Source: Candidatus Beckwithbacteria bacterium (GTDB lineage: Bacteria; Patescibacteriota; Microgenomatia; UBA1400; UBA1449). Taken from it: DNA of 64,000 nt. Numbering within the stretch: position 1 is the first letter of the stretch; each line of letters starts with the position of its first letter. Of this stretch, positions 2,874 through 35,461 are shown piece by piece. The position numbers and the translations under genes were made by a program. The DNA lies in the NCBI GenBank assembly GCA_012797845.1, contig JAAZOH010000040.1, positions 57,072 through 121,071 on the forward strand, read 5' to 3'. The notes under the pieces are model-generated. The model saw nothing but the letters and a program-made list of their open reading frames with translations. It did no database searches and was not told where the DNA came from.

Positions 2874-3279
2874 CTATATGGAAATTAAGAATATTTTAGA
2901 GATAATTGAAAAAAAGCCTTTACCTATTGTAATTATTTTTTCAATTCTAATTCTTCCTTTTGCAATAAATCAGTAGGTTAATTTATTTCCTAACCACTGG
3001 ATATTAACATTAATTCTTGTCTTTATTTGGGGGATTTCATTATATTTTCAGTCAAACGAAGTAAGGGATTGGAAAAGAAAAACAAGGCTTGTTAGTTACT
3101 TAAAAAGACATGGTCCATGGAGAAGCATAAAACATTTGACAACAGAGTGGTATACAAAAGATGATTACTCCGAAAAAATAATTCAAAAACTAATTAAGAA
3201 ATACCCTGAAGAATTAAATGATGTTCCTATGAAAAAATATGGGCCTGGGGTTGGAATAAATAAAAAATAAATTATACGA

Positions 3280-3543
3280 CTAATTCTTATTCTCTTCTCG
3301 CATCCTATCAGCAACTTCCCACATAAACCCTATGTGTTTCATTGCAATTTCTTCATCTACTAAACCTAATACTGCAACCTCTGTCCAAAGAAGTGCTAAT
3401 TGATCAAATACGGCTGCTGATGGAGGAATTTGAGATAGTGCAACAGCTCGATCTAAAATAGATTGATAAGTACCGCTACCATCAGAACTTATGGCTTGAG
3501 AAAAATCATTCAAAAGTTGGTCATTTTCAGAATTACCTTTCAT
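3280..3543 (-). CDS. Hypothetical small protein inside an AT-rich island.
   Basis: 87-aa ORF only. No recognisable motifs. Confidence 0.2.
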   Translation of the reverse strand: MKGNSENDQLLNDFSQAISSDGSGTYQSILDRAVALSQIPPSAAVFDQLALLWTEVAVLGLVDEEIAMKHIGFMWEVADRMREENKN

Positions 3544-3688
3544 ATTATTGGATAATTTATAGGATTAAGTATTAAAAGTCAATATTTTGTTTATTTGAAA
3601 AACTTACTATTTAAACCAATTTTTCCAATTTTCATAATTTCAAAAACTAGCATCCTTTGACTAGAAAGAAGAAATATAATCCTATAAT

Positions 3689-24865: not shown

Positions 24866-25855
24866 TTATAATATCCTACCACTTCCAGTTAAGATAATAA
24901 TTAAAGCTACCATTACAAATAAAGATAAGTGCACAAAACTTTTTCCGGTTCTTCGGATGGTGCCCCGATGCCAAATCAAAATTCCATCAATTACCAAAAC
25001 AACGATAATAATGAGTGTCAGAGCCAGATTAACGCTTTTAGTCAGATCAAATGAGGAAAACGCAGGAATATGATCTAAACTAACTGATTCAAGTAATGTT
25101 TCCGGGAACAAAGTTTTGATTTGCGTATTTGCTGGTTCTTGTTGTTTGACTTCTTTGATATCTTCTACCACTTCATCAACTGGTTCCGCCACAGCAACAA
25201 CCGGTTCTTCAGTAATGGGTTTAACTTGAGGTTCAATTTGTACCCCCTGTACAGATTCAGCAGCTGCCTGTTCAGGGATAGCAGCAACTGCTGTTGATGG
25301 TGCTCCAAAGTGCTGAACCACTAAAGTCGTTTCCTGGCCATTTAAGAGTCCATTAACTACTGCTACTCCAATTTGGGTATAACGACCAGACATAATATTA
25401 TCTTTATGGGTTTGAGATTCCATCCAAGCTGCCACCACAGCTCCGGAGTCATTAAAATCTCGGGCTAAGTTTTCTCCAGCATACAGATAGGTATAGCCAG
25501 CTTGCTTAAAAAAAGACCAAGGACTAGTTCCATCAGGGGCTGTGTGGGCCCAATAATTATTGGCAAACATATGAGCTGCTTTATACCTGGCCGAAGTAGC
25601 TAATGTTTCATTAAATTCTAGGGCTGGCAAACCAGCTTCAGCTCGTTTCTGATTGGTCATTGAAACAATATCACCCACAGAAATATTTGAGGCATATCCT
25701 AAAACCCCAGGTTTAACTTGAGAAATCCCAGAAATTAAAAGCTGGAAAAAAAGAATCAGTAAAACTAGTTTAGAAAGCGATTTATGGTGAAGAATTTTAG
25801 CACGATGATTATTGCCGTGATGAGGAAAAAACAAATTATGTAGATGCCGCTTCAT
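24866..25855 (-). CDS. CAP/SCP/PR1-like (YkwD-type) domain protein with signal peptide and C-terminal membrane anchor.
   Basis: NYWAHTAPDG...YLYAGENLARDFN...AAWMESQTHKDNIMSGRYTQIGVAV carries the CAP domain signatures. A hydrophobic C-terminus is present. Confidence 0.7.
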   Translation of the reverse strand: MKRHLHNLFFPHHGNNHRAKILHHKSLSKLVLLILFFQLLISGISQVKPGVLGYASNISVGDIVSMTNQKRAEAGLPALEFNETLATSARYKAAHMFANNYWAHTAPDGTSPWSFFKQAGYTYLYAGENLARDFNDSGAVVAAWMESQTHKDNIMSGRYTQIGVAVVNGLLNGQETTLVVQHFGAPSTAVAAIPEQAAAESVQGVQIEPQVKPITEEPVVAVAEPVDEVVEDIKEVKQQEPANTQIKTLFPETLLESVSLDHIPAFSSFDLTKSVNLALTLIIIVVLVIDGILIWHRGTIRRTGKSFVHLSLFVMVALIIILTGSGRIL

Positions 25856-25929
25856 ATCAAACCATTATGAAACTATCAGATTATTTCGTCAATTAGAAAA
25901 GTGTGAAAATAAGAAAGTAAAGAAAATAT

Positions 25930-27385
25930 ATGTCGGACCGTCGTATTGTATTGCTTCTCTTTTTTTGTGTTGTTGCTTAAAAAAGAGTCGACGGCCCGAC
26001 TAAGGTAAACAATCAGCCCGATGTTTTGGGCTGATTGAGAATTATCTTTCTAGAACACACTCAGGGAGTATGCTCTAGTTTTCACAACTGGGGTTTGGGT
26101 CCCAGTTGAGAATTGTTTTACTCGGGGTGTGAAAGGGCCGAACTTCCCCGAGTTTTTTCAACAGCTGGGTTGAGTGGACAACCCAACTGAAAATTGTTGG
26201 AGCCCGCCATTGGGCTCCGGAACGCACGACTCTGTGCGTTCAAATAACCTCCCCTTTTTCGGGCATTGTAGTTGGCAACTTCGCCAACCAAAACCCTAAG
26301 AGGTAGGTCATTTTCTTTTTTTTATTTTTTATTGCTGTTGTTTTTCAAAAACCATCATAGCCCCTACGGCTAGGTTTTTGTTAACAACTCTGCCCCCATC
26401 GGACAGCCCAAAAATTCTCAAGAAGAATTCCGGGATTTTACTATCCAAAAAAATCAATAGCAAAATCCCAGAATCCTTACTGTTTACCATATTGTAAAGA
26501 GCCAATTACCACTTTCTAAACTAAAGCTAGTTTTCAGTTGAAAATGATAAATTTGGAAAAGTGAATTTTACTACTTAAAAAGCAAAAAATCAAGACATTA
26601 AAAGAAGAAGGTGAAACTAAAAGAAGTAAATAATATGCCCCAAAACGCGAAACAAGACACCTTCATCTACCTTTCTACTTAACGTAGAAACAACAGGATA
26701 GAATTGGGTGTCTTGTAAAAGACAATGAAACGAAGTCCACGAGGGCTGCAGGGTGTTGCAAAATCTGGTCAATAAGACCTGCAGCCCTCAGCGGACACTT
26801 AGGAAAAGGAGAAGGGTTTCGTCGCGATATTCTGCGACGGGGGTCCAAAGTCAGCCAAGAGACAGCTGACCCGAAAACCCTTCCCTCAAAGGACGGGGTG
26901 GTTCTTCCGGGCGACAGTACAGCAATGATTTCGGGGACCCCTCCCGAAATCCAGAAAATGAACGAAAATACCTTGAGGCGAGCCAGCCTCTCCAGTAACA
27001 AGCTCGCCTCGCCGAGATCTACTTTCCCTCTCCCCAGGGAAATGCAAGCAGGTCTCGGTATTAAAGACCTTTTTCGACCCAACCCAATCGCACTGGGTTG
27101 AGTTGTCCAGATCACCCCCATGTGGGCACATCTCTAAGGGGGGTTCCCTGGACACAACAGGTGCCCAATCATTGAAGGCTAAGTTTCTAGCCATCGATTG
27201 GGCGTTTTTACCGAACTTTTCCTTTCCGGGAGAATTGTCTCCCAGACTTTCAATAAGCTCAGGCAAGCCTATTCTTGCCTGAGTACGACTAAAATAATTC
27301 CACCCGGCAACCTGTGGGACGTCTTGGGTTGCCGGGCTGCGGTGCGCCTGTTGAGGGTGGCGAGGAATGTGAAAGTTTACCATCT
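25930..27385. ncRNA. GC-rich, hairpin-dense non-coding island. Candidate large structured RNA of unassigned family and unknown strand.
   Basis: Base composition rises sharply relative to the flanks. There is no credible ORF, only mutually overlapping garbage ORFs on both strands. Dozens of perfect or near-perfect stems are visible. Examples: gtcggaccgtcg/cgacggcccgac at 25932/25988; gggctgcagg/cctgcagccc at 26743/26778; caagacacc/ggtgtcttg at 26653/26707; a three-way junction at 26811-26883; cccggcaacc/ggttgccggg at 27303/27326. Confidence 0.35.
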
Positions 27386-27636
27386 AATAATTACATGGCA
27401 CACTATCACACTCCTCTTATTTTTCATTCATATTCATATTTCTCCTTTTCCTTATTTCATTGTTAAAGGGCATTAGTCATAAAAAATAAAAAAACCGCTC
27501 TTGGTTTATTATTTTTAACTGACTAATATTATGAGCTATATTATTCAATAAATTATTATTTTGTCAAGAAACATCTTGTATATTAGAGATCTTTATACTT
27601 GTCAAAGGGAATTAAATCTGCAAAGATAATTATGAG

Positions 27637-28269
27637 ATGAATGAATCAGTTAATCCCCAAACTCAAGCCAATACCAATAAAGAGGATAATCTTGTCTACA
27701 ACCCCTATACTCACAAAATGTTTACTAAAAATGCCGCTGCCATGGCTGGGTTTGAGGTTTCTTTGGATAAAGCCGCAGATTTGAAATTACCACTTTTTTG
27801 GGATAATGGCGTAATTTTTGGCTCTAAAGAAATGGTTGAGCAAAGAAAAGTCGCCACTTTACCAGGAACGGTAAATAAAGGAGCCTGTATTCACTATGAA
27901 GATATAGCCGGAAAAACAACTTATGCTGCTATTACTGAACCCTGGCTTTTTGCTAAATATAAGGGTATTTATTTGCGACCGGTTTCAGCTTTAGAAGTAC
28001 CCATTCTTTTTGGTAAACATTCTGTTTTTAAAACCTACGAAATTCGTGATAGCAATTTTATACCTTTAGATAAAGCTATTATTAAAGATAAAATTGATAT
28101 TCCAAAACAGTTTAAAAATCCGGTTTTACAGAAAATTTTTGCTGGTTATACCAAAATAAAAACTAAAGGTAAAAATTCAAAATTCTTTACTGCTGACACT
28201 ATCTTGTGGGTTTATTTTGTGCTGATTATGTCGCTTTTGACAGCTTTAATTATTCGGTTTTACAAATAA
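27637..28269 (+). CDS. Hypothetical protein with C-terminal TM anchor.
   Basis: 210 aa with a hydrophobic tail (ILWVYFVLIMSLLTALIIRFYK). No family was recognised. Confidence 0.3.
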   Translation: MNESVNPQTQANTNKEDNLVYNPYTHKMFTKNAAAMAGFEVSLDKAADLKLPLFWDNGVIFGSKEMVEQRKVATLPGTVNKGACIHYEDIAGKTTYAAITEPWLFAKYKGIYLRPVSALEVPILFGKHSVFKTYEIRDSNFIPLDKAIIKDKIDIPKQFKNPVLQKIFAGYTKIKTKGKNSKFFTADTILWVYFVLIMSLLTALIIRFYK

Positions 28270-28285
28270 TTGCGTATTAATTCCT

Positions 28286-28954
28286 CTACCTGTGATTTTT
28301 CTTAAACCAGTTACTTATAATATTGTTTGTCCTAAACCCATCCCACCAATGCTTGAAAAAGTTTTTATAGTGGTCAAAGTGATGTCCAAATGTTGGCTTA
28401 GGAGTTGGCGTTGGTGTGTGATGGTGATCAGGGTTACCACAACTAAAATTGATGTCAAAATCAAACTTGATACTGCTTTGCTGATACTCATTACCCACTG
28501 ATGAATCAATAGACACGATCCAGTCATAATCTCTTGACTGGCCGTTGCTAAGTGTGCCTAAGTTAATTCTCTCAGTTGCCAGCAGATCGGCTAAAGTTTT
28601 ATCGCTACCAGCCCACCCACTAACTAGAAAATTTCCAAAATAATCAGTGCCATTAGCTCTGATAACGGTAAATAAAACTTCGTCCAAACTTTTAGGCTCA
28701 GTTGCATCTTTTGGCCGGACTAGAAGCGTCAGCTGGCAATCTTTACCAGTAGTGTTTTTGACTGAAATAGTTTTTTGATACGTATCACCTGGTTTAACAT
28801 CTAGTTCCTGAAACAAGGTTTTTTTATCAATAGTCGTCATACTACAACGGCTCTTATCGCATTTGACAGTGCAATCGCTATGAGCAGACACAGGCTGTAT
28901 AAAAATTCCTAAACAAAATAGTGAAAACAGAATTGCTATAAAATATTTAGTCAT
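28286..28954 (-). CDS. Secreted TasA/camelysin (Peptidase_M73)-like protein, His-rich C-terminus.
   Basis: Signal peptide, then LDVKPGDTYQKTISVKNTTGKDCQLTLLVRP. This resembles the TasA core L-PGD-x-K-x-V-N-G motif. Confidence 0.4.
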   Translation of the reverse strand: MTKYFIAILFSLFCLGIFIQPVSAHSDCTVKCDKSRCSMTTIDKKTLFQELDVKPGDTYQKTISVKNTTGKDCQLTLLVRPKDATEPKSLDEVLFTVIRANGTDYFGNFLVSGWAGSDKTLADLLATERINLGTLSNGQSRDYDWIVSIDSSVGNEYQQSSIKFDFDINFSCGNPDHHHTPTPTPKPTFGHHFDHYKNFFKHWWDGFRTNNIISNWFKKNHR

Positions 28955-28957
28955 AGT

Positions 28958-31123
28958 TTATTTTTCCTGCCAAGGAAATGTAATAGTACTTGTCCCAATT
29001 GATGTATCACCATCTTTATATAGTAAATCAATGCTTACAGTTCCGATACCCGTGTGGGCTACACAAGTCAAAAGCTCATCAGAACACGTTCCTAAAAAGA
29101 TCGGATCCAAAATGAGTTGGTTTTGATTGAGTGGCTTATAGGCTTTTCCTTTAATTGTTTCTTCTACTGGTTCATTGCTATACAGATGGTGATAGGAAAT
29201 TGCATAGTCAAGTTCATCAAATCCCCAAGCATTACTAAAGCCAATTAGTAAATAGCTATCCTCTTGGTCTACGGAAACTGAGATATGGCTATGAGGGTTG
29301 GTCCCGGGATTAGGTGTTGCTAATTCTATCCAATCTGAAGGACTATCGGTATCAAAACCTAATGGACTTCTAGCTATTGAATGGCCTTCGGCCACTGCTA
29401 AAGTCCAATCAGGATACAAATGCGGAAAATTATTTGAACATGTTCCGCCATCACAAGAACCTTGTTCCCAGGCTACAAAATCAACAATTTGATCATCACT
29501 GTTTCTAAGTGTTAGCTGGTCACCGTCATTATTAAGCCAAGCTGCAGCACCAGCAAGTTGCACTATCACTGCCCCATTATCGCTAAAGCAATGAATCCAG
29601 GTCCCATTATCATGAGATAAAAGTGCAAAACCATAGGCTGGTATCTCAGGATTACCAGTGATTGTGACCGAACCGGCGTTATCGCTTAAGCTCCAATTTT
29701 TAATATTGACTGCAAAATTATTGGGATTATATAGCTCAATCCACTCACTACTGGCTTCATCGCAGTGAGTAGTATTGGCTACATCATAGTACACCTCATT
29801 GATTACGATTTTAGTAAACTCAGGTCCTGCTGGTATTTTGTGATTACCAAAATCAATATCTTCATAAAGATCTGGACCTGGGAATACGTAGTATTTACTA
29901 CTTGGCATAGTTTGCTGCCAACCGGTTTGGTTTTCTTCAGCCACTACGATTTCGCCATCAACATTGCTCAAGTCTAGTTCATACAGACCATCGGTATCAG
30001 TAATATCAGAACTTACTACTTTAAAGATAGTGACATTTAAATTACCTGTGTTGTTTGTATACAGAATGTCATATATTTTGAAGTTGACCGAAGCCCCAGT
30101 TCCAACCAAACTAGTCCAGTATTCGTGATCACTAGCATAAGGCCCCCAATCAGGAGATGCGCCATCAATTTGTAAATCAAGCAATTCGTATCCATAAGAT
30201 TCCAAACCATTAACTGTATCTGTCCAGTTGGTATCTGGGTTGCGGACTGAGTATTTGGCATCTGCCGTCAAATCGGTATCAGCTTGGTAAGTCCCGGTAA
30301 CCCTCACTAGATATGTAGCTCCATTTTCCAAAACTTCAGAATCTATGCCTGTATTATCATCGGCTGGAACACTAAGTTCCTCAACTTCCTGAGCCGCAAA
30401 AATGTTCCAACCTTCCAAACCTGGTTCAGCTTCATCTTTATCACCATTGCCATCCAAATCATTAAATTTCATGCCAGTTACTTTAGCCCATGACCCGGTT
30501 GAAACACTATTTGCTAAGATTTCTTCATCCCAAAAAGCCTGCCCATAGCTATGCTGCTGCATCCAGGCTTTCGCAACGTATGAAAAATTACAGCTTAAAT
30601 TTCCTAGATTCGGATTCGGATCATCAGGTAAAGAGACCTGATATTCAAACCAATGTTGAGCTAAACCATAATCCGGATTTGGGTAGTAATCAGCAGTAGG
30701 AAAAGATAAATCACCATCTAAACCATTTGTATTAATACTAAAGTCAACCAAAGAACCAGAGTATTTGTTTGTAATTTGTAAAATCCCATGCAAATCATAG
30801 TATTTTAGAAGAACTTCCAAATGCAGGTTTTGGCAAAGCGTTTCGTCACCACTATCAAACTGGTATTTTTGACTGTAAATAAACGGTAAAGCTCCAATTT
30901 GATTAATTAAAGCGCTGCGGGAAGATTCCTTATCAGGCATAAGCAGAGCTGGTTCAAAACCAGTTTGGACTGAATTAAAACCTAAATCTAAATTAGTAGT
31001 TCTAAAAAAATTATCTGAAGATTTTTCTTGATCACTAAATAGCGCTCCAGAAACCGGTAGGAGATACAGATTCAACAAAATGCTTATCAAACACGCTCTA
31101 GTTAAGAAGCTCAAAAGTCTCAT
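28958..31123 (-). CDS. Large secreted protein containing a lamin-tail domain (LTD).
   Basis: Signal peptide present. IVINEVYYD...SSEWIELYNPNNFAVNIKNWSLSD is the LTD signature (INE...EWIEL.N....V.L.GW.L.D). Confidence 0.6.
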   Translation of the reverse strand: MRLLSFLTRACLISILLNLYLLPVSGALFSDQEKSSDNFFRTTNLDLGFNSVQTGFEPALLMPDKESSRSALINQIGALPFIYSQKYQFDSGDETLCQNLHLEVLLKYYDLHGILQITNKYSGSLVDFSINTNGLDGDLSFPTADYYPNPDYGLAQHWFEYQVSLPDDPNPNLGNLSCNFSYVAKAWMQQHSYGQAFWDEEILANSVSTGSWAKVTGMKFNDLDGNGDKDEAEPGLEGWNIFAAQEVEELSVPADDNTGIDSEVLENGATYLVRVTGTYQADTDLTADAKYSVRNPDTNWTDTVNGLESYGYELLDLQIDGASPDWGPYASDHEYWTSLVGTGASVNFKIYDILYTNNTGNLNVTIFKVVSSDITDTDGLYELDLSNVDGEIVVAEENQTGWQQTMPSSKYYVFPGPDLYEDIDFGNHKIPAGPEFTKIVINEVYYDVANTTHCDEASSEWIELYNPNNFAVNIKNWSLSDNAGSVTITGNPEIPAYGFALLSHDNGTWIHCFSDNGAVIVQLAGAAAWLNNDGDQLTLRNSDDQIVDFVAWEQGSCDGGTCSNNFPHLYPDWTLAVAEGHSIARSPLGFDTDSPSDWIELATPNPGTNPHSHISVSVDQEDSYLLIGFSNAWGFDELDYAISYHHLYSNEPVEETIKGKAYKPLNQNQLILDPIFLGTCSDELLTCVAHTGIGTVSIDLLYKDGDTSIGTSTITFPWQEK

Positions 31124-31159
31124 CTACGTCTTTAACCTAACTTTTTAATTATTACTAGA

Positions 31160-31621
31160 TTAATTTTCGTCAAAAACAACTAATTCAGCAGGAAACCCTA
31201 GGGTTGTCGAAATACCGCCTACTGCAATTCTAAATCTATTAACTAAATTACTATCTTCAAAAAAACCTAAATAACCTAAGGCTTCCATTGCTGCACTTAC
31301 TGCTGGTCTAAATTTCTTATCTAGGTTAGCTAGACCATCTAATCCTTCACTACAATTAAACTTATTTATTTGTCTCTTACTCGCTCTAGACTCATGAGCT
31401 AAATTACAGAGAATCCAGGCTGATAATAATTGACGTGCTTTTTGTCTTTGGATTTCTTCCATAGCTCCTACAGGGATTTCATCAAGCCCTGCAGCTGAAG
31501 CTGCTGATTCCTGTACATCAAACGACCTTGCCAAAGGTAATCCCACTGTCCCTTCTCTTCCACCTGCTTCCATAGCAGCTTCTTCAACATGCGATGGAAC
31601 TAACTCAGTTCTTTCTCTCAT
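31160..31621 (-). CDS. Hypothetical soluble protein.
   Basis: 153-aa ORF with no signal peptide. The N-terminus is Ala/Glu-rich. Confidence 0.25.
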   Translation of the reverse strand: MRERTELVPSHVEEAAMEAGGREGTVGLPLARSFDVQESAASAAGLDEIPVGAMEEIQRQKARQLLSAWILCNLAHESRASKRQINKFNCSEGLDGLANLDKKFRPAVSAAMEALGYLGFFEDSNLVNRFRIAVGGISTTLGFPAELVVFDEN

Positions 31622-31673
31622 ATAATTCCTTTCTTTATTTCTTTTTAACTTTAAATAATTTTCTTCACTATTT

Positions 31674-32237
31674 TCATTTTTTTTCTTCAGCTTTTTGCCT
31701 TTTCTTTTCTTTATGTTTTAAAGCCATCTGGCCAAGTTCGGTTTTAATATTGACCAACTCGGCGTAAACAATGATAGTTATTGGCACTACAATTAGAACA
31801 ATAAAACCCATTTGGGTTTGGGCAAAAGCAATCGGATAGCCAAGATAAGGAAGGTAGACAGTAGCTTTACCTACTACCCGATCAGATCTGACCAACTCTA
31901 AATCAGGTGTATTATTAGCATCCCCTTTGGTGCGGTAACTAGTTAACCCTAAATCTTTATCTTGACTGATATCTACAATCCGATGAGTCACTGTTTCTTT
32001 AGGATTGATTTCTCCCCGAAACGTAATTACGTCATTAACTTGGTAATTTTTTTGCGGTGCAACAATTACTAAACTTCCCATGGGAATAGCTGGCTCCATC
32101 GAACCTGATTGCACCATAAAAAGTTTATAGTCGATTGGAGTATTGAGCCGGGTCAGCATTAAACTTCCAGCTATAAGCACTATCAACAAAATCACCAAGG
32201 TATAAAAAATAGTTTGAATGATTTTAAAAATCTTCAT
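31674..32237 (-). CDS. sipW: Signal peptidase I of archaeal/eukaryotic type (SipW-like, S26B).
   Basis: N-terminal TM, then VQSGSMEPAIPMGSLVIV (catalytic Ser box), then ...VTHRIVDI (His box). The 187-aa size fits SipW. Confidence 0.7.
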   Translation of the reverse strand: MKIFKIIQTIFYTLVILLIVLIAGSLMLTRLNTPIDYKLFMVQSGSMEPAIPMGSLVIVAPQKNYQVNDVITFRGEINPKETVTHRIVDISQDKDLGLTSYRTKGDANNTPDLELVRSDRVVGKATVYLPYLGYPIAFAQTQMGFIVLIVVPITIIVYAELVNIKTELGQMALKHKEKKRQKAEEKK

Positions 32238-32312
32238 ATTTTCTTAGCTCGTTTTTAAAAGCAAAAATTGGCTTCTCAAAAACCAACTAAAATATTTCTC
32301 TAGCTAAGGAGA

Positions 32313-32330
32313 GAGGGGCAAATACCCCTC
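32313..32330 (-). terminator. GC-rich hairpin downstream of the 288-aa tasA-like gene. Possible terminator or attenuator.
   Basis: gagggg-caaata-cccctc perfect 6-bp GC stem. A T-rich stretch follows on the minus strand but is not immediately adjacent. Confidence 0.3.
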
Positions 32331-32359
32331 CCTCCCCGCTAACGAAAAAACAAATTAAT

Positions 32360-33226
32360 CTATTGCTCATGCTCTGGACATACATAGTCCATATTGTTCC
32401 GTGATTGAATGGCGGTAAACTTGAGATCGGCAGTCAAAGTATCTGTTTGAGCTGCGTTATTTACCTCTACTCCATTACAAGTAAACCCAGTTCCTCTGAC
32501 TAAAGGACCAGTTGTATCTTCAGGTAAAGGAGTCAGTGTCATTTCACCAAAGCACCAACCCTTACCAATATAATAGGTTTGCAAGCCTTTTAGAGGCAAT
32601 ACGGTGTCACCTTGATCCAATCTGGTTCTATCAAAAAAGTTAAGATACTTATCAGCTAAGGTTAATTGAATTGTATTATCAGTACCTAAAAGATTTGCAA
32701 TAGTTTCAGGCCCAAGATAGTACTTAGAGGCTTCTTCATTTTCTTCCAAAACATTGTCACCATCATCAGCCCACCAAACAAATTCAATACCTTGAGCTAG
32801 CTCACCATCCATAAGTTCAGCTGATTCTGTTGCGCAACTTGGATCATCATCTAATTCTGGTTCACTACAGCCATTATCAGCATTGCTGGTTAAAGTTAAT
32901 TCGGCACAAGCCCAAGCATCGTTATTATCAACAGTTAAATCAATGGTATCCTCACCAATATCGCCTGGCTTTATATCCGTAAAATCAAAAAACTTATTTA
33001 CTGTAGTTAAGTCAGCACTAATCCATGACGTATTTGGGCTTGCAACTAACGCACCAGTAATTTGATCTGAAACATAGCTATCATTACTTACTTTCAAATC
33101 AATTGATCCAGCAGTAAAAACATTATTAGTTGAGGTTTCGGTATCAGAAAAATATGCTTGAGTAGCATAGACGCCAATTGCCCCAACTGTAGCAATAGTT
33201 AAAACACTTAGTAAAATTTTATTCAT
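32360..33226 (-). CDS. TasA/CalY/camelysin family fibre protein with SipW-cognate signal peptide.
   Basis: The N-terminus ...VGAIGVYATQAYFSDTETSTNNVFTAGSIDLKV matches the SipW-cognate class signal (AxFSDxE.S.N.F.AGT.DL). A strong AAGGAGGTGA Shine-Dalgarno sequence lies 6 nt upstream. Confidence 0.65.
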   Translation of the reverse strand: MNKILLSVLTIATVGAIGVYATQAYFSDTETSTNNVFTAGSIDLKVSNDSYVSDQITGALVASPNTSWISADLTTVNKFFDFTDIKPGDIGEDTIDLTVDNNDAWACAELTLTSNADNGCSEPELDDDPSCATESAELMDGELAQGIEFVWWADDGDNVLEENEEASKYYLGPETIANLLGTDNTIQLTLADKYLNFFDRTRLDQGDTVLPLKGLQTYYIGKGWCFGEMTLTPLPEDTTGPLVRGTGFTCNGVEVNNAAQTDTLTADLKFTAIQSRNNMDYVCPEHEQ

Positions 33227-33232
33227 ATTTTT

Positions 33233-33242
33233 TCACCTCCTT
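33233..33242 (-). promoter_or_regulatory. Shine-Dalgarno sequence AAGGAGGTGA for the tasA-like gene.
   Basis: The reverse complement of tcacctcctt lies 6 nt upstream of the ATG at 33226. Confidence 0.5.
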
Positions 33243-33293
33243 AAAGTGAAATTTATTATTTTTCTAACAAAGCAAAAGTAATGCGTCAACCGC

Positions 33294-34607
33294 TTACCTA
33301 TCTGACTCTAAACAGGTATTAACTTGTACAGCATCTACTGCATCCAAATCATAGCCATCAGCATCACTTTGGCTAAAATCAGCCGGATTACTAGTATCAA
33401 CAATCCGGACAAATTTGACCCAATCAAAACCTGATCCAGAGATATCAACATAAGATACTCCAGAACTACTATCATGATTGCTAATCGTGCCAATATAGAC
33501 GAAACTATTCCCATCCTGACTTACAAAAATATCAGCTGTTTCATTGGGGTAACTAGATCGGCCATTGGTCACCTCATGGAAAGAAATGTCTCCGGCACTT
33601 ACATTCGCAGTATCGTCAACAATCGGATTAGCAAAAGACACAGTAATTTGGCCGCCAAAACCAAGGCTGACAAAATTGCCATCCAGTGCTCCCTCAACTG
33701 AAGCTGGATTGCTTCTATTAGCTAAAACCGGTGTTCCATTTTTACGTAAACCCTGCACTAGGGTAAAAGCCTGATCAGCATAAACCGAATCTTCAATACA
33801 AGTCGGACAAACAAAGCTGTCATTATGCCTGGCTTGGAAAATATTAAAAACCACGTCTGCCATAACTCTGTCTGTCTGAGCTAAATTAAGATCAGCTGTG
33901 CCATCACAAATCACCCCTGGGTTAACTGTGGGATCTTGGCCAACTGCTACTGGTGCTTTTGTTAGTGTCCCAAAGCACCAGGCTTTACCGATAAAATAAT
34001 CTTGATTACCAGCTTGCAATGGTCCGCTACCATCCCAAAGATTGTGACTTGCATCAGCTAAAGTCCATTTGCCATTGTTTATCAAAGTATAAGCCGATCC
34101 TTCAAACAATATTTTATCTAGTTCGTTATTTTCCAAAACATTGTCACCATCATCAGCCCAGAAAATCATATTGAGATTTTGAGCCAGTTCTCCATCCCAA
34201 AGATCCTCTGTATCCTCGCTGTCTCCAGCCGTCAGTTCTGGTTCATTTGCTGTGTTTTCATCATTTTGAGTTAGTGTGATATCCATACACGCCCAAGCTG
34301 GATTGTCTGCTACATGCAAGCTAATAGTATCCTCACCTAAATCCCCTGGTTTAAGATCATGAAAATCAAAAAAGAGTTGGTTGGTAAGATTAGTTAGTTC
34401 CCAAGTAGTGCTCTCCATAAGTTCTAATCCACCATCTACTGAAAAACCATTGTAGTAACTATGATTATCAACTTTTAAGTCAATTGTCCCAGCTGTCAGT
34501 GAGTTGCCAGTTGAAGTTTCAGTGTCTGAAAAATAAGCAGATGTAGCTACTACTCCAACGATTGCTACAAAACTTAGCGTTAACAGGCTTAAAAAAATTT
34601 TTTTCAT
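33294..34607 (-). CDS. TasA/CalY/camelysin family fibre protein (long paralog) with SipW-cognate signal peptide.
   Basis: N-terminus ...VGVVATSAYFSDTETSTGNSLTAGTIDLKV. The first ~150 aa are collinear with the upstream paralog, and a ~150-aa C-terminal extension is added. Confidence 0.65.
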   Translation of the reverse strand: MKKIFLSLLTLSFVAIVGVVATSAYFSDTETSTGNSLTAGTIDLKVDNHSYYNGFSVDGGLELMESTTWELTNLTNQLFFDFHDLKPGDLGEDTISLHVADNPAWACMDITLTQNDENTANEPELTAGDSEDTEDLWDGELAQNLNMIFWADDGDNVLENNELDKILFEGSAYTLINNGKWTLADASHNLWDGSGPLQAGNQDYFIGKAWCFGTLTKAPVAVGQDPTVNPGVICDGTADLNLAQTDRVMADVVFNIFQARHNDSFVCPTCIEDSVYADQAFTLVQGLRKNGTPVLANRSNPASVEGALDGNFVSLGFGGQITVSFANPIVDDTANVSAGDISFHEVTNGRSSYPNETADIFVSQDGNSFVYIGTISNHDSSSGVSYVDISGSGFDWVKFVRIVDTSNPADFSQSDADGYDLDAVDAVQVNTCLESDR

Positions 34608-34680
34608 GTTCTCTTCACCACCTTTCTTTTATCTTATAGTTTATTAAAACTATCCTTTAATATTTGAAATCTTAAGCAAC

Positions 34681-34702
34681 AAAAAACCAGCACGTGTGCT
34701 GG
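34681..34702 (-). terminator. Rho-independent terminator after the sortase gene.
   Basis: On the minus strand the sequence reads ccagcacacgtgctgg followed by TTTTTTG. That is a 7-bp stem, a 2-nt loop and a T-run. Confidence 0.45.
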
Positions 34703-34903
34703 CTTATGATGTAAGACCTTTGTGGCCAAGATTGTATCTGGTAGTGTAGCTATTTTGCATGCTTTAGCAGTATTTTTTTGTACTGCATAAAAAGATTTCC
34801 ACAGCTTTTAGCAATTTTAAAGTAACGATTTTCTATACACTTGTCAATATGCATTTTGAAAATTATAGCTAACTCAATTATAGTTATAGGTTGCGAATAA
34901 GAA

Positions 34904-35461
34904 TTATAGGGAAGATTGTGGTTTAGCTACCACCACTAAGCGCTTTTGGTCCCAGAAACCAGTACAGGTATATAACGTCAATCGTTGATCTTTACTTTGA
35001 TCCAGCACTTCAGCTTGATTAGAAGAAACTACTCTAATACTTTGAATAGTAAAATTTTGTACTGACTTATCGGAAAATTGGATAGTTATAGTCTGACCAA
35101 CTTTAGCTTTATTAAGATTGCCAAGCAGACTATTCCAGTTGTGACCATACAAAACACTATTACCCATTTGTCCAGGTAGTGGTGTATCCAAAAGGTAGAC
35201 AATTCCTTGGCTAGGCGCACTCCAATGGCTATCAGCAAAGCTCATTGCTTGTACAGCAACATCTATATCCAAAGCTGAGATTTGCAGTCTAACGGGAAGT
35301 TTGGAGGTATTTTGAGTAGTAGTTGTATTTTGAACTAGCTGAGTATTAGTAAAACTTAGTTTGGCCGGCACATACTTTTGCCACAGCAAATAGCCCGCTG
35401 TCATTAGAAAACAAAAGCCAATGATTAAAAAAACTTGAGAAGGTTTTACAAAACTGCTCAC
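34904..35461 (-). CDS. Sortase (transpeptidase).
   Basis: N-terminal TM anchor, His in LYGHNW, catalytic Cys in LTLYTCTG (TLxTC motif), and a downstream conserved Arg. Size 185 aa. Confidence 0.7.
   Translation of the reverse strand: MSSFVKPSQVFLIIGFCFLMTAGYLLWQKYVPAKLSFTNTQLVQNTTTTQNTSKLPVRLQISALDIDVAVQAMSFADSHWSAPSQGIVYLLDTPLPGQMGNSVLYGHNWNSLLGNLNKAKVGQTITIQFSDKSVQNFTIQSIRVVSSNQAEVLDQSKDQRLTLYTCTGFWDQKRLVVVAKPQSSL

Follow-up and report, generated by a model that had tools for sequence, protein, structure and literature searches.

A GC-rich, hairpin-dense intergenic island in a Candidatus Beckwithbacteria genome as a candidate gene for a large structured non-coding RNA

Genomes of the Candidate Phyla Radiation are reduced, and one Candidatus Beckwithbacteria genome, with a size estimated for its group at roughly 1 Mb, otherwise tolerates almost no non-coding DNA. 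What, then, occupies a long gap between two of its divergent genes? The gap lies in a 64 kb stretch of a Candidatus Beckwithbacteria contig (JAAZOH010000040.1), referred to here as the window, between a CAP-domain gene on the minus strand (24866-25855, start at 25855) and a plus-strand gene (27637-28269). The start points of the two genes are 1781 nt apart, in agreement with the 1.78 kb given in a preliminary description of the locus. The product of the plus-strand gene is a tail-anchored membrane protein of 210 aa that belongs to a rare family, and the neighbours in the window include CAP, LTD, camelysin-like, signal peptidase, sortase and sugar-nucleotide genes. Since genomes of this radiation are reduced, 1.6 kb of non-coding DNA would be costly to keep, and it is therefore probably useful.

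Most of the gap is filled by an island (approximately 25930-27400) which has the highest GC content and the most stable folding within the window. In 300-nt windows, the GC content climbs to 0.42-0.46 over 25900-26350 and to 0.50-0.54 over 26650-27400, compared with a window mean of 0.373. The GC step that had been described by eye is thus real, although it takes the form of two GC-rich blocks rather than one, with an AT-rich valley (GC 0.33-0.37, around 26350-26650) between them. When the loci scanned in relatives are included, the island still ranks first among non-coding GC outliers, and no other GC-rich structured island has been detected in those loci. In three published GC-IGR searches, long GC-rich intergenic regions of AT-rich bacterial genomes are described as enriched in structured non-coding RNA genes, which is the basis of such searches (PMC6429828, PMC8632094, PMC11109978), and the GC excess of the island matches this pattern of structural RNA genes in AT-rich genomes.

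A GC-rich block could also be a protein-coding gene, or a pseudogene from a GC-rich donor, a reading that is almost certainly wrong. It would draw on two minus-strand ORFs of 165 and 148 aa, one of which has been called as a gene in the ENA and Logan annotations. However, these ORFs overlap each other in different frames, their GC1/GC2/GC3 values are flat, and the island ORFs have background codon scores (-0.14 to 0.07 under a host-trained model, compared with 0.29 +/- 0.07 and a minimum of 0.10 for real genes). Among 5.8 billion proteins, the sole match of the 165-aa ORF is itself, and no equivalent NCBI-sourced protein has been found; the 24 remaining six-frame segments that reach 35 aa or more (a 1541-aa concatenation) have no match at E <= 10 in the same collection. 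No Pfam, PADLOC or PHROG family is matched in the island. The earlier view that the island holds no plausible ORF is borne out, and the six-frame search gives no sign of a degraded gene from a GC-rich donor.

The folding of the island stands far outside that of its surroundings. Fold z-scores against shuffled controls range from -6.9 to -18.5 across both blocks and strands, and the free energy of the island is -534/-611 kcal/mol, compared with -266 to -399 kcal/mol for 18 control segments of equal length. The base pairs common to the folds of both strands number 350, compared with 52-173 in the same controls. The predicted minus-strand fold comprises about 32 hairpins and pairs approximately 61% of the nucleotides. 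All four long-range pairs proposed earlier exist, at 25932-25943/25989-26000 (12 bp), 26652-26661/26707-26716 (10 bp), 26741-26752/26778-26789 (a perfect 12 bp) and 27303-27312/27327-27336 (10 bp), and the proposed three-way junction at 26811-26883 has a perfect 9-bp closing helix (26811-26819/26875-26883). The GNRA-like loops mentioned alongside them have not withstood inspection, with no GNRA tetraloop among the 4-nt loops of either strand and other recognisable tertiary motifs likewise absent. Perfect, short-loop stems without tertiary motifs are unlike those of well-studied large RNAs, and could point instead to a process acting on DNA or to an element that is very young.

Two features of the fold would also be expected of a palindrome cluster acting in DNA, produced by template-switch mutation or serving as protein-binding sites, recombination sites or a single-strand origin, with the RNA having no role: inverted repeats of 9-13 bp without a mismatch make up many of the stems, whose loops are short, and the GC-rich block at 26635-27420 folds equally well on both strands (z = -10.3 on the minus strand, with an equal plus-strand value). 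This explanation is nevertheless very unlikely. The nested long-range helices span 450-825 nt, the hairpin sequences all differ and their stems lack the common motif expected of binding sites, and no replication or recombination gene has been detected near the island. In helices common to both strands, moreover, G.U wobbles number 18 on the minus strand and 3 on the plus strand, an asymmetry unexpected for DNA duplex palindromes, though a folded single DNA strand could give it.

The same wobbles bear on the direction of transcription. Tested against the window baseline of 109:73 (60:40) in place of 50:50, the asymmetry has P = 0.011, whereas a 50:50 null gives P = 0.0007. The minus strand folds better across the whole window, so that the strand signal is partly compositional. 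For the block at 25925-26530, the z-score is -18.5 on the minus strand and -6.9 on the plus strand, with free energies of -254.5 and -207.4 kcal/mol. A scan of 25700-27750 revealed no plus-strand promoter-like site on the CAP side of the island. Taken together, the wobbles, the strand-specific z-score, a promoter-like site and a terminal stem-loop followed by a U-rich tract favour the minus strand as the transcript strand. The putative promoter and terminator were recognised by their consensus in a sequence that is AT-rich, and are not in themselves evidence of transcription.

Read in this direction, the element would begin at a sigma-70-like promoter (27567-27540, minus strand), the best site within 25700-27750, in which TTGACA and AATAAT are separated by 16 nt and 11 of 12 consensus positions are matched. 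Transcription would start at approximately 27532. An inverted repeat whose arms are 25 nt long gives the AU-rich stem-loop that follows at 27474-27527 (z = -5.5; helix pairing probabilities 0.94-0.97). This stem-loop overlaps a promoter-like site on the plus strand (27515-27544) that would serve the 210-aa gene. It may function as an operator, as a hairpin capping the 5' end of the RNA, or in both roles. As a cap hairpin, it would protect the RNA ahead of two closed domains.

The first of these, domain I (27473-26635), would be organised by an AU-rich strand at its 5' side, here termed the spine (27421-27473), which is predicted to form four nested and collinear helices with downstream segments at 26635-26641 (7 bp), 26722-26731 (10 bp), 26801-26813 (13 bp) and 26954-26968 (14 bp), with pairing probabilities of 0.90-0.97. 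The 13-bp helix (27440-27452/26801-26813) is perfect. The spine chain amounts to 41 bp, compared with 23.8 +/- 5.9 in shuffles, and has been matched by 1 of 1000 shuffles and by none of 1000 random genomic 57-mers, in a test that was picked post hoc from the fold. As the spine zips with its four partners, clusters of GC-rich hairpins, around 17 in total, would project comb-like from a long interrupted helix. These hairpins make up the GC-rich part of the domain (26635-27420, 50-54% GC), whose first element is an imperfect 23-bp hairpin at 27362-27416.

An AU-rich and pyrimidine-rich linker (26489-26634, GC 0.33-0.37) with two weaker hairpins (26562-26592 and 26502-26556) separates domain I from domain II. 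The linker contains internal promoter-like sites, such as one at 26520-26491 on the minus strand with 9 of 12 consensus positions, and the two domains could therefore be separate transcripts, the second of which would start near 26484. Domain II (26488-26004; z = -18.5 minus, -6.9 plus) is predicted to be a closed multi-branch loop with about 12 hairpins. Its closing helices are 26479-26488/26004-26013 and the pairing of UUGAGAAUU (26413-26421) with AAUUCUCAA (26035-26043), the latter sequence being present again at 26106-26114. The first element within it is a 24-bp hairpin with four G.U pairs (26423-26478). A comparison of domain I with domain II has revealed no internal paralogy, which closes the route to covariation within the element itself.

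At its 3' end, the transcript would finish at a terminal stem-loop followed by a U-rich tract (feature 25900-26001, z = -7.0), so that both ends of the predicted RNA carry stable hairpins and its length would be approximately 1.6 kb. The stem is GC-rich, 12 bp long (26000-25989 with 25943-25932) and has a pairing probability of 1.00. An alternative, small terminator-like hairpin occurs at 25986-26001 and is followed by U6. The terminal stem-loop differs from a textbook intrinsic terminator.

The position of this end raises the question of whether the island belongs to the CAP gene. It lies on the same strand, with 75 nt between its end and the CAP start codon, as would a very long structured 5' leader of an mRNA starting at about 27532, whose hairpins would stabilise or regulate the message in cis. 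Other points to be counted on the side of a leader are the atypical terminator and a perfect 12-nt complement, plus 7 nt more, between the linker (26512-26534) and the CAP coding sequence (25761-25777). On the other hand, two promoter-like sites (TTCACA-16-AATAAT and TTGACG-17-CATAAT, each 10 of 12; 25864-25907, minus strand) lie between the island and the CAP gene, downstream of the terminal stem-loop; that the gene has promoter-like sites of its own past the terminal hairpin supports the island as an independent unit. CAP orthologs with 55-57% identity in syntenic relatives manage with only 54-412 nt upstream and no such element, and no riboswitch, T-box or leader family of Rfam is matched. 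We are not aware of any cis-regulatory leader of 1.6 kb in bacteria. A leader of the CAP gene is thus improbable, and cis regulation of the CAP gene is judged less likely than a role in trans. A conserved CAP leader was also considered and has been rejected, the CAP homologs being preceded by genes or short AT-rich gaps.

Searches for relatives of the island have been uniformly empty. With nhmmer and blastn, no homolog has been detected in 80 MgsA-anchored GTDB loci, in 39 CAP-anchored JGI metagenome loci, in five syntenic loci of the nearest relatives or in seven loci with homologs of the 210-aa protein, and blastn against phage and plasmid collections gave the same result, as did exact-pattern and back-translated scans of IMG/VR. 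The syntenic relatives retain the neighbouring genes. In two of them (L124 and L029) a p222-like gene adjoins CAP, with the island absent between them, and in three others (L122, L125 and L104) the island is absent upstream of CAP; the nearest relatives compared are distant, with a MgsA identity of 69%. Relative to these loci, the island and the adjoining 210-aa gene constitute one lineage-specific insertion of 2.4 kb. The family of the 210-aa protein has seven representatives among 1.84 billion proteins, and the protein itself has no family match. A functional partnership between this protein and the island has been considered and found no support, as six distant homologs occur without the island nearby.

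A segment with so sharp a composition step, known from one sequencing run, might be an assembly artefact in which a foreign GC-rich fragment was joined into a Beckwithbacteria contig. It is most improbable that this is so. The 2.4 kb segment is identical in an ENA MEGAHIT contig and a Logan contig, with no polymorphism between the assemblies, and a contig of the NCBI MAG (identified by proteins NMC36467.1 and NMC36474.1) that differs in length, at 153 kb, carries the same flanking proteins, all assemblies checked being derived from that single run (ERR1876141). Both flanks run on into syntenic host genes, and the spine and linker, which are AU-rich and host-like in composition, pair with the GC-rich parts.

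The insertion could, however, be genuine and inert. In that case 2.4 kb would have arrived by horizontal transfer or rearrangement, as the relic of a foreign RNA gene or as a non-autonomous, hairpin-rich mobile element, and the structure would be inherited, serving no function in the host. The island's absence from the five relatives' loci named above, its GC content of 50-54% compared with 37% for the host, and its being a complete orphan in protein searches are all compatible with such an origin. The borders tell against it, showing neither target-site duplications nor terminal inverted repeats, as does the lack of any transposase or integrase near the island and of a second copy in the remaining 62 kb of the window. 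In addition, the strong promoter-like site is correctly placed, and the codon use of the co-inserted 210-aa gene is entirely that of the host. The helices show essentially no decay, and their mismatches are biased to wobbles on one strand, which speaks for selection that is ongoing or very recent. It is therefore regarded as rather unlikely that the insertion is inert or selfish.

A large structured RNA, probably of an undescribed type, is the best reading of the island, which makes it a credible but orphan candidate. More specifically, the balance tips slightly towards the island being one gene, or a pair of neighbouring genes, encoding a large, highly structured and lineage-specific non-coding RNA, and the chance that the island, seen in one genome and with no homolog detected, is a structured RNA under selection can be put at even or a little better. 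Of the earlier suggestion of a functional large RNA, the general part has thus been strengthened by the extreme fold stability, the non-coding character, the GC excess and the minus-strand signals, whereas the specific family resemblances have not been upheld. By analogy with OLE, ROOL and GOLLD, the RNA would most likely work in trans, in an architectural or scaffolding role, as part of an assembly of RNA alone or of RNA and protein in which many distinct hairpin loops are displayed, a suggestion which can be offered with low confidence. It is a more tentative proposal still that the island represents a new class of very large bacterial RNA of approximately 1.6 kb, twice the size of GOLLD, comb-like, with about 30 hairpins in two closed domains, and acting as a self-standing scaffold or assembly in what is so far one Candidatus Beckwithbacteria lineage. 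Very large structured RNAs known from bacteria are few, and OLE, ROOL and GOLLD each showed an unexpected RNA architecture. We know of no very large structured RNA from the Candidate Phyla Radiation. If transcribed, the RNA would be among the largest structured RNAs that bacteria have outside the ribosome. Its singleton status is the main weakness of this interpretation, and the island may prove to be a young insertion without function.

Comparison with known RNA families helps to define what the candidate is and is not. A search of the whole window with the 4227 families of Rfam gave no match at gathering score, and at E <= 10 the region 25700-27700 produced only noise from miRNA-precursor, CRISPR-DR and lncRNA models (best E = 0.077), in which the miRNA-type matches correspond to the two 23-24-bp hairpins that open the domains. 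No covariance-model match has been found for RNase P RNA, tmRNA, SRP RNA, 6S RNA or rRNA, and ARAGORN detected neither tmRNA nor any tRNA in the 64 kb, in keeping with the absence of RNase P, tmRNA, SRP and rRNA signatures noted earlier. The models for GOLLD, ROOL, OLE, HEARO, RNase P, tmRNA and group I/II introns are absent even at E <= 10. The likenesses to OLE, GOLLD, ROOL, HEARO and group I/II introns raised in the preliminary description therefore do not extend to membership, and the absence of Rfam matches excludes GOLLD, ROOL, OLE, HEARO, RNase P and group I/II introns as the identity of the island.

Several partial likenesses are nonetheless instructive. Group I introns are recognised by a P3-P9 core with a guanosine-binding site in P7, and group II introns by a domain V of about 34 nt with an AGC triad and a GNRA loop, a 5' GUGYG and a host gene or intron-encoded protein. 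The island shares with ORF-less introns of both groups a similar size range, the lack of an ORF, a high degree of structure and an insertion-like nature. Unlike them, it lies between genes and matches none of Intron_gpI, Intron_gpII and group-II-D1D4 at E <= 10; its fold contains no domain V-like hairpin with a GNRA loop, and no reverse transcriptase has been detected near this intergenic element. REP/BIME and MITE clusters likewise pack hairpin-forming sequence into intergenic regions, but these are multi-copy families, whereas every hairpin of the island is distinct, the remaining 62 kb of the window share with the island nothing more than chance AT-rich 12-14-mers, and long-range helices organise the whole. 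In rRNA and other large RNAs, blocks are closed by long-range helices from which hairpins radiate, and the predicted pairings of the island (27440-27452/26801-26813 and 26479-26488/26004-26013) are of the same kind, although the pairing of one 5' strand with four successive 3' segments is unlike rRNA and no rRNA model is matched.

The closest parallels are GOLLD (RF01998), ROOL (RF03087) and OLE (RF01071). GOLLD and ROOL typically occur near prophages or tRNAs and OLE near oapA/oapB, and at the island no phage similarity has been found, nor has any tRNA or oapA/oapB context. In contrast to these families, the island comes from a single genome, its stems are mostly short and perfect, and it has no GNRA loops. 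GOLLD, ROOL and OLE form RNA-only homo-oligomeric assemblies (PMC12286853), and by analogy this mode of action is considered the most plausible one for the island. Like these RNAs, it is a stand-alone, non-coding element far above the size of riboswitches and small RNAs, and neither they nor the island have a known biochemical function. GOLLD is approximately 800 nt long, and the island is about twice as large. As in all three families, the island is GC-enriched within an AT-rich genome and is predicted to fold into multi-branch domains that carry many hairpins.

A 1781-nt gap separates the divergently oriented CAP-domain gene (24866-25855, minus strand) from the unannotated 210-aa gene p210 (27637-28269, plus strand), and the GC-rich, hairpin-dense island reported there in the preliminary description is confirmed. 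A GC excess is evident in 300-nt windows (42-46% at 25900-26350 and 50-54% at 26650-27400, against a window mean of 37.3%), and the island is the top outlier for GC and folding across the 64 kb, but it comprises two blocks divided by an AT-rich valley (33-37% GC, ~26350-26650) and not the single block first described. Relative to dinucleotide shuffles, 26640-27420 folds with z = -10.3 on the minus and -10.8 on the plus strand, and 25925-26530 with z = -18.5 and -6.9, respectively. When a 1.66 kb segment over the island is folded as either strand, the two folds (-534 and -611 kcal/mol) have 350 base pairs in common; 18 control segments of equal length reach -266 to -399 kcal/mol and share 52-173 pairs. 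The island's structure is exceptional and strand-biased. All long-range pairs named earlier were found in the sequence, the sole failing detail being the GNRA-like loops, as no GNRA occurs among the 4-nt loops of either strand. In composition, the island is like the structural RNA genes of AT-rich genomes, whose GC enrichment is, according to PMC6429828, PMC8632094 and PMC11109978, the principle of searches based on GC-rich intergenic regions.

Elsewhere in the window, the gap 2874-3688 (815 nt, flanked by ORFs of 120 aa or more) is AT-rich (29% GC), carries an 87-aa minus-strand ORF (3280-3543) and looks ordinary, unlike the island. The minus-strand spacer 32238-32359, between the camelysin-like and signal-peptidase genes, contains a very stable GC-rich hairpin along with another one (-53 kcal/mol for 136 nt, z = -6.4), which are probably a terminator or attenuator within a surface-structure cluster (28286-35461, minus strand). 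This cluster encodes a sortase-like gene, two camelysin/TasA-like proteins, an S24/S26-type signal peptidase, a 153-aa protein, a 721-aa LTD-domain protein and a 222-aa secreted protein.

The island is non-coding, as had been claimed. Its ORFs overlap mutually in differing frames, with background host-trained codon scores (-0.14 to 0.07, versus 0.29 +/- 0.07 in 41 real genes) and flat GC1/GC2/GC3, and no family match was obtained in Pfam, PADLOC or PHROG. The 165-aa ORF chosen by gene callers has no match but itself in 5.8 billion protein clusters, and the rest of the six-frame segments (35 aa or longer), concatenated, gave nothing at E <= 10 in the protein search. Within their word-based sensitivity, these searches gave no sign of a degraded gene, an explanation that had been raised beforehand, and a coding gene has next to no chance of accounting for the island.

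With Rfam 15 (4227 families), zero matches were detected at gathering score in the whole window, and at E <= 10 the 2 kb around the island gave only noise (best E = 0.077), consisting of CRISPR-DR and lncRNA fragments and of miRNA-precursor models that hit the two long hairpins (27362-27416, 26423-26478). The suggested likeness to GOLLD, ROOL, OLE, HEARO or an ORF-less group I/II intron was not borne out: at E <= 10 none of these models appeared, nor did those of RNase P, tmRNA, SRP, 6S and rRNA. The island is absent from all curated RNA families. ARAGORN returned nothing over the 64 kb, and the whole window (1-64000) is without tRNA, rRNA or any Rfam-recognised RNA gene.

Three independent lines of evidence point to the minus strand, on which CAP also lies. 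In helices common to both folds, G.U is found at 18 positions on the minus strand (A.C on the plus) versus 3 in the reverse sense (P = 0.011 against the rest-of-window baseline, P = 0.0007 against 50:50), as in the 24-bp hairpin 26423-26478 and in hairpin 27104-27154, which on the minus strand has G.U followed by tandem G.A/A.G. The best sigma-70-like site of the region (TTGACA-16-AATAAT, 11/12) lies on the minus strand just 5' of the island, at 27567-27540, and no plus-strand promoter-like site is directed into the island from the end near CAP. The strand contrast in z is present only in the 3' block, the GC-rich block being equal on both strands; a DNA-level cluster of palindromes is considered very improbable. 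Nearly all genes of the window lie on the minus strand, which also folds more stably throughout (G.U baseline 109:73, favouring minus), and this general bias is a weakness of the RNA reading.

Folding and promoter-like sites delineate a predicted minus-strand RNA of ~1.6 kb, from 27532 to ~25925, with ~32 hairpin loops and ~61% of its nucleotides paired. Its AU-rich 5' hairpin (27527-27474, z = -5.5) is an inverted repeat (27472-27527, 25-nt arms, 76% complementary) situated between divergent promoter-like sites (minus, 27567-27540; plus, 27515-27544) and overlapping the promoter-like site of p210, and may serve the island and p210 as a common operator. Domain I, the GC-rich block 26635-27420, follows with an AU-rich spine strand (27473-27421) engaged in four nested, collinear predicted helices of 7, 10, 13 and 14 bp, whose partners are, in order, 26641-26635, 26731-26722, 26813-26801 and 26968-26954 (pairing probabilities 0.90-0.97; the 13-mer helix is perfect), with clusters of GC-rich hairpins projecting between them in the predicted fold. 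In a test picked post hoc, once the fold had been seen, this 41-bp chain exceeded the 23.8 +/- 5.9 of shuffled spines and was attained in 1/1000 shuffles and 0/1000 random genomic 57-mers. In the AU-rich and pyrimidine-rich linker (26634-26489), two weaker hairpins occur along with internal promoter-like sites (e.g. 26520-26491), so that two separate RNAs, of ~900 and 555 nt, are possible. Linker positions 26512-26534 contain a perfect 12-nt complement, followed by a 4-nt bulge and 7 nt more, to CAP 25761-25777 (~codons 27-32), both being on one RNA strand if read-through occurs; the match may be due to chance, since part of it is the self-palindrome AAACTAGTTT.

Domain II (26488-26004) has ~12 high-probability hairpins and is closed by pairs 26488-26479/26013-26004 and by UUGAGAAUU (26421-26413) with AAUUCUCAA (26043-26035), the latter duplicated at 26114-26106 and thus offering an alternative pairing. 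Three neighbouring hairpins of this domain (plus-strand coordinates 26035-26043, 26106-26114 and 26187-26195) are each preceded by AAUUCUCAA or AAUUUUCAG on the minus strand, and each domain has a hairpin containing the 11-mer ACUCAACCCAG (26165-26175 and 27093-27103), which hints at local duplication as the island grew; no paralogy was found between the two blocks. The predicted RNA ends in a 3' terminal stem-loop (26000-25932, z = -7.0) followed by a U-rich tract, beyond which lie two minus-strand promoter-like sites of CAP (25907-25864, each 10/12). That the island is a giant cis-acting leader of CAP, on whose strand it would be read, is judged distinctly unlikely.

Homologous islands, a search for which the preliminary description had suggested, were recovered neither by blastn in phage and plasmid collections, nor by nhmmer and blastn in loci from GTDB (80) and JGI metagenomes (39) and in 12 others, nor by IMG/VR scans or protein-space searches. 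No comparable GC-rich non-coding island is present in the examined loci of relatives, and within the other 62 kb of the window none of the island hairpins is repeated. By these sequence comparisons the island is an orphan, and its presence is lineage-specific. The contig is k127_38915 (123.9 kb) in ENA assembly ERZ928041 from run ERR1876141, a Logan contig from that run carries the identical segment, and the same flanking proteins occur in an NCBI MAG of Candidatus Beckwithbacteria bacterium (NMC36467.1, NMC36474.1); a chimeric assembly is given a very small chance.

No close relative is available, since the nearest other MgsA, a neighbouring gene product used as anchor, is just 69% identical. 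More distant relatives conserve the block CAP - 90 aa - NTP-transferase - 277 aa - 145 aa - MgsA and carry CAP orthologs of 55-57% identity, upstream of which the AT-rich sequence is unremarkable and no more than 54-412 nt long. In relatives L124 and L029 the gene order is LTD protein, p222 homolog and CAP, with a gap of 54-74 nt to CAP, whereas in the window p210 and the island sit between p222 (a 222-aa gene, 28286-28954) and CAP; 25856-28285 is thus a lineage-specific insertion of 2.4 kb. In relative L122 a sortase gene is directly 5' of CAP instead, and the locus has therefore been rearranged. Neither target duplication nor terminal repeats were found for the insertion, nor any mobility genes near it, and an inert or selfish insertion, its structure inherited, is a rather unlikely explanation of the island. 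The p210 protein, tail-anchored in the membrane and host-like in codon use, comes from a rare family, with only 7 representatives in 1.84 billion, and has no family match and no significant fold match. Its six homologs lie in other gene contexts, none with an island, and a functional link between this protein and the island is therefore unsupported.

On this evidence the island is best read as a large structured non-coding RNA gene standing alone on the minus strand, or as two such genes side by side. The earlier proposal of a large structured RNA is sustained by the extreme fold, non-coding character and strand bias, but not by membership of a known family or by homologs, the island being confined to a single genome. 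Further weaknesses of this reading are the large number of short, perfect stems, with no tertiary motif recognisable among them, and a putative promoter and terminator that rest on consensus matches. As a sequence feature the island is real and striking, and it makes a credible candidate for a large structured RNA that is new and outside every known family; we infer its transcription, transcript ends, tertiary organisation and function. A role in trans, architectural or as a scaffold, is tentatively preferred as the most likely function by analogy with OLE, ROOL and GOLLD, which are described in PMC12286853 as RNA-only assemblies.
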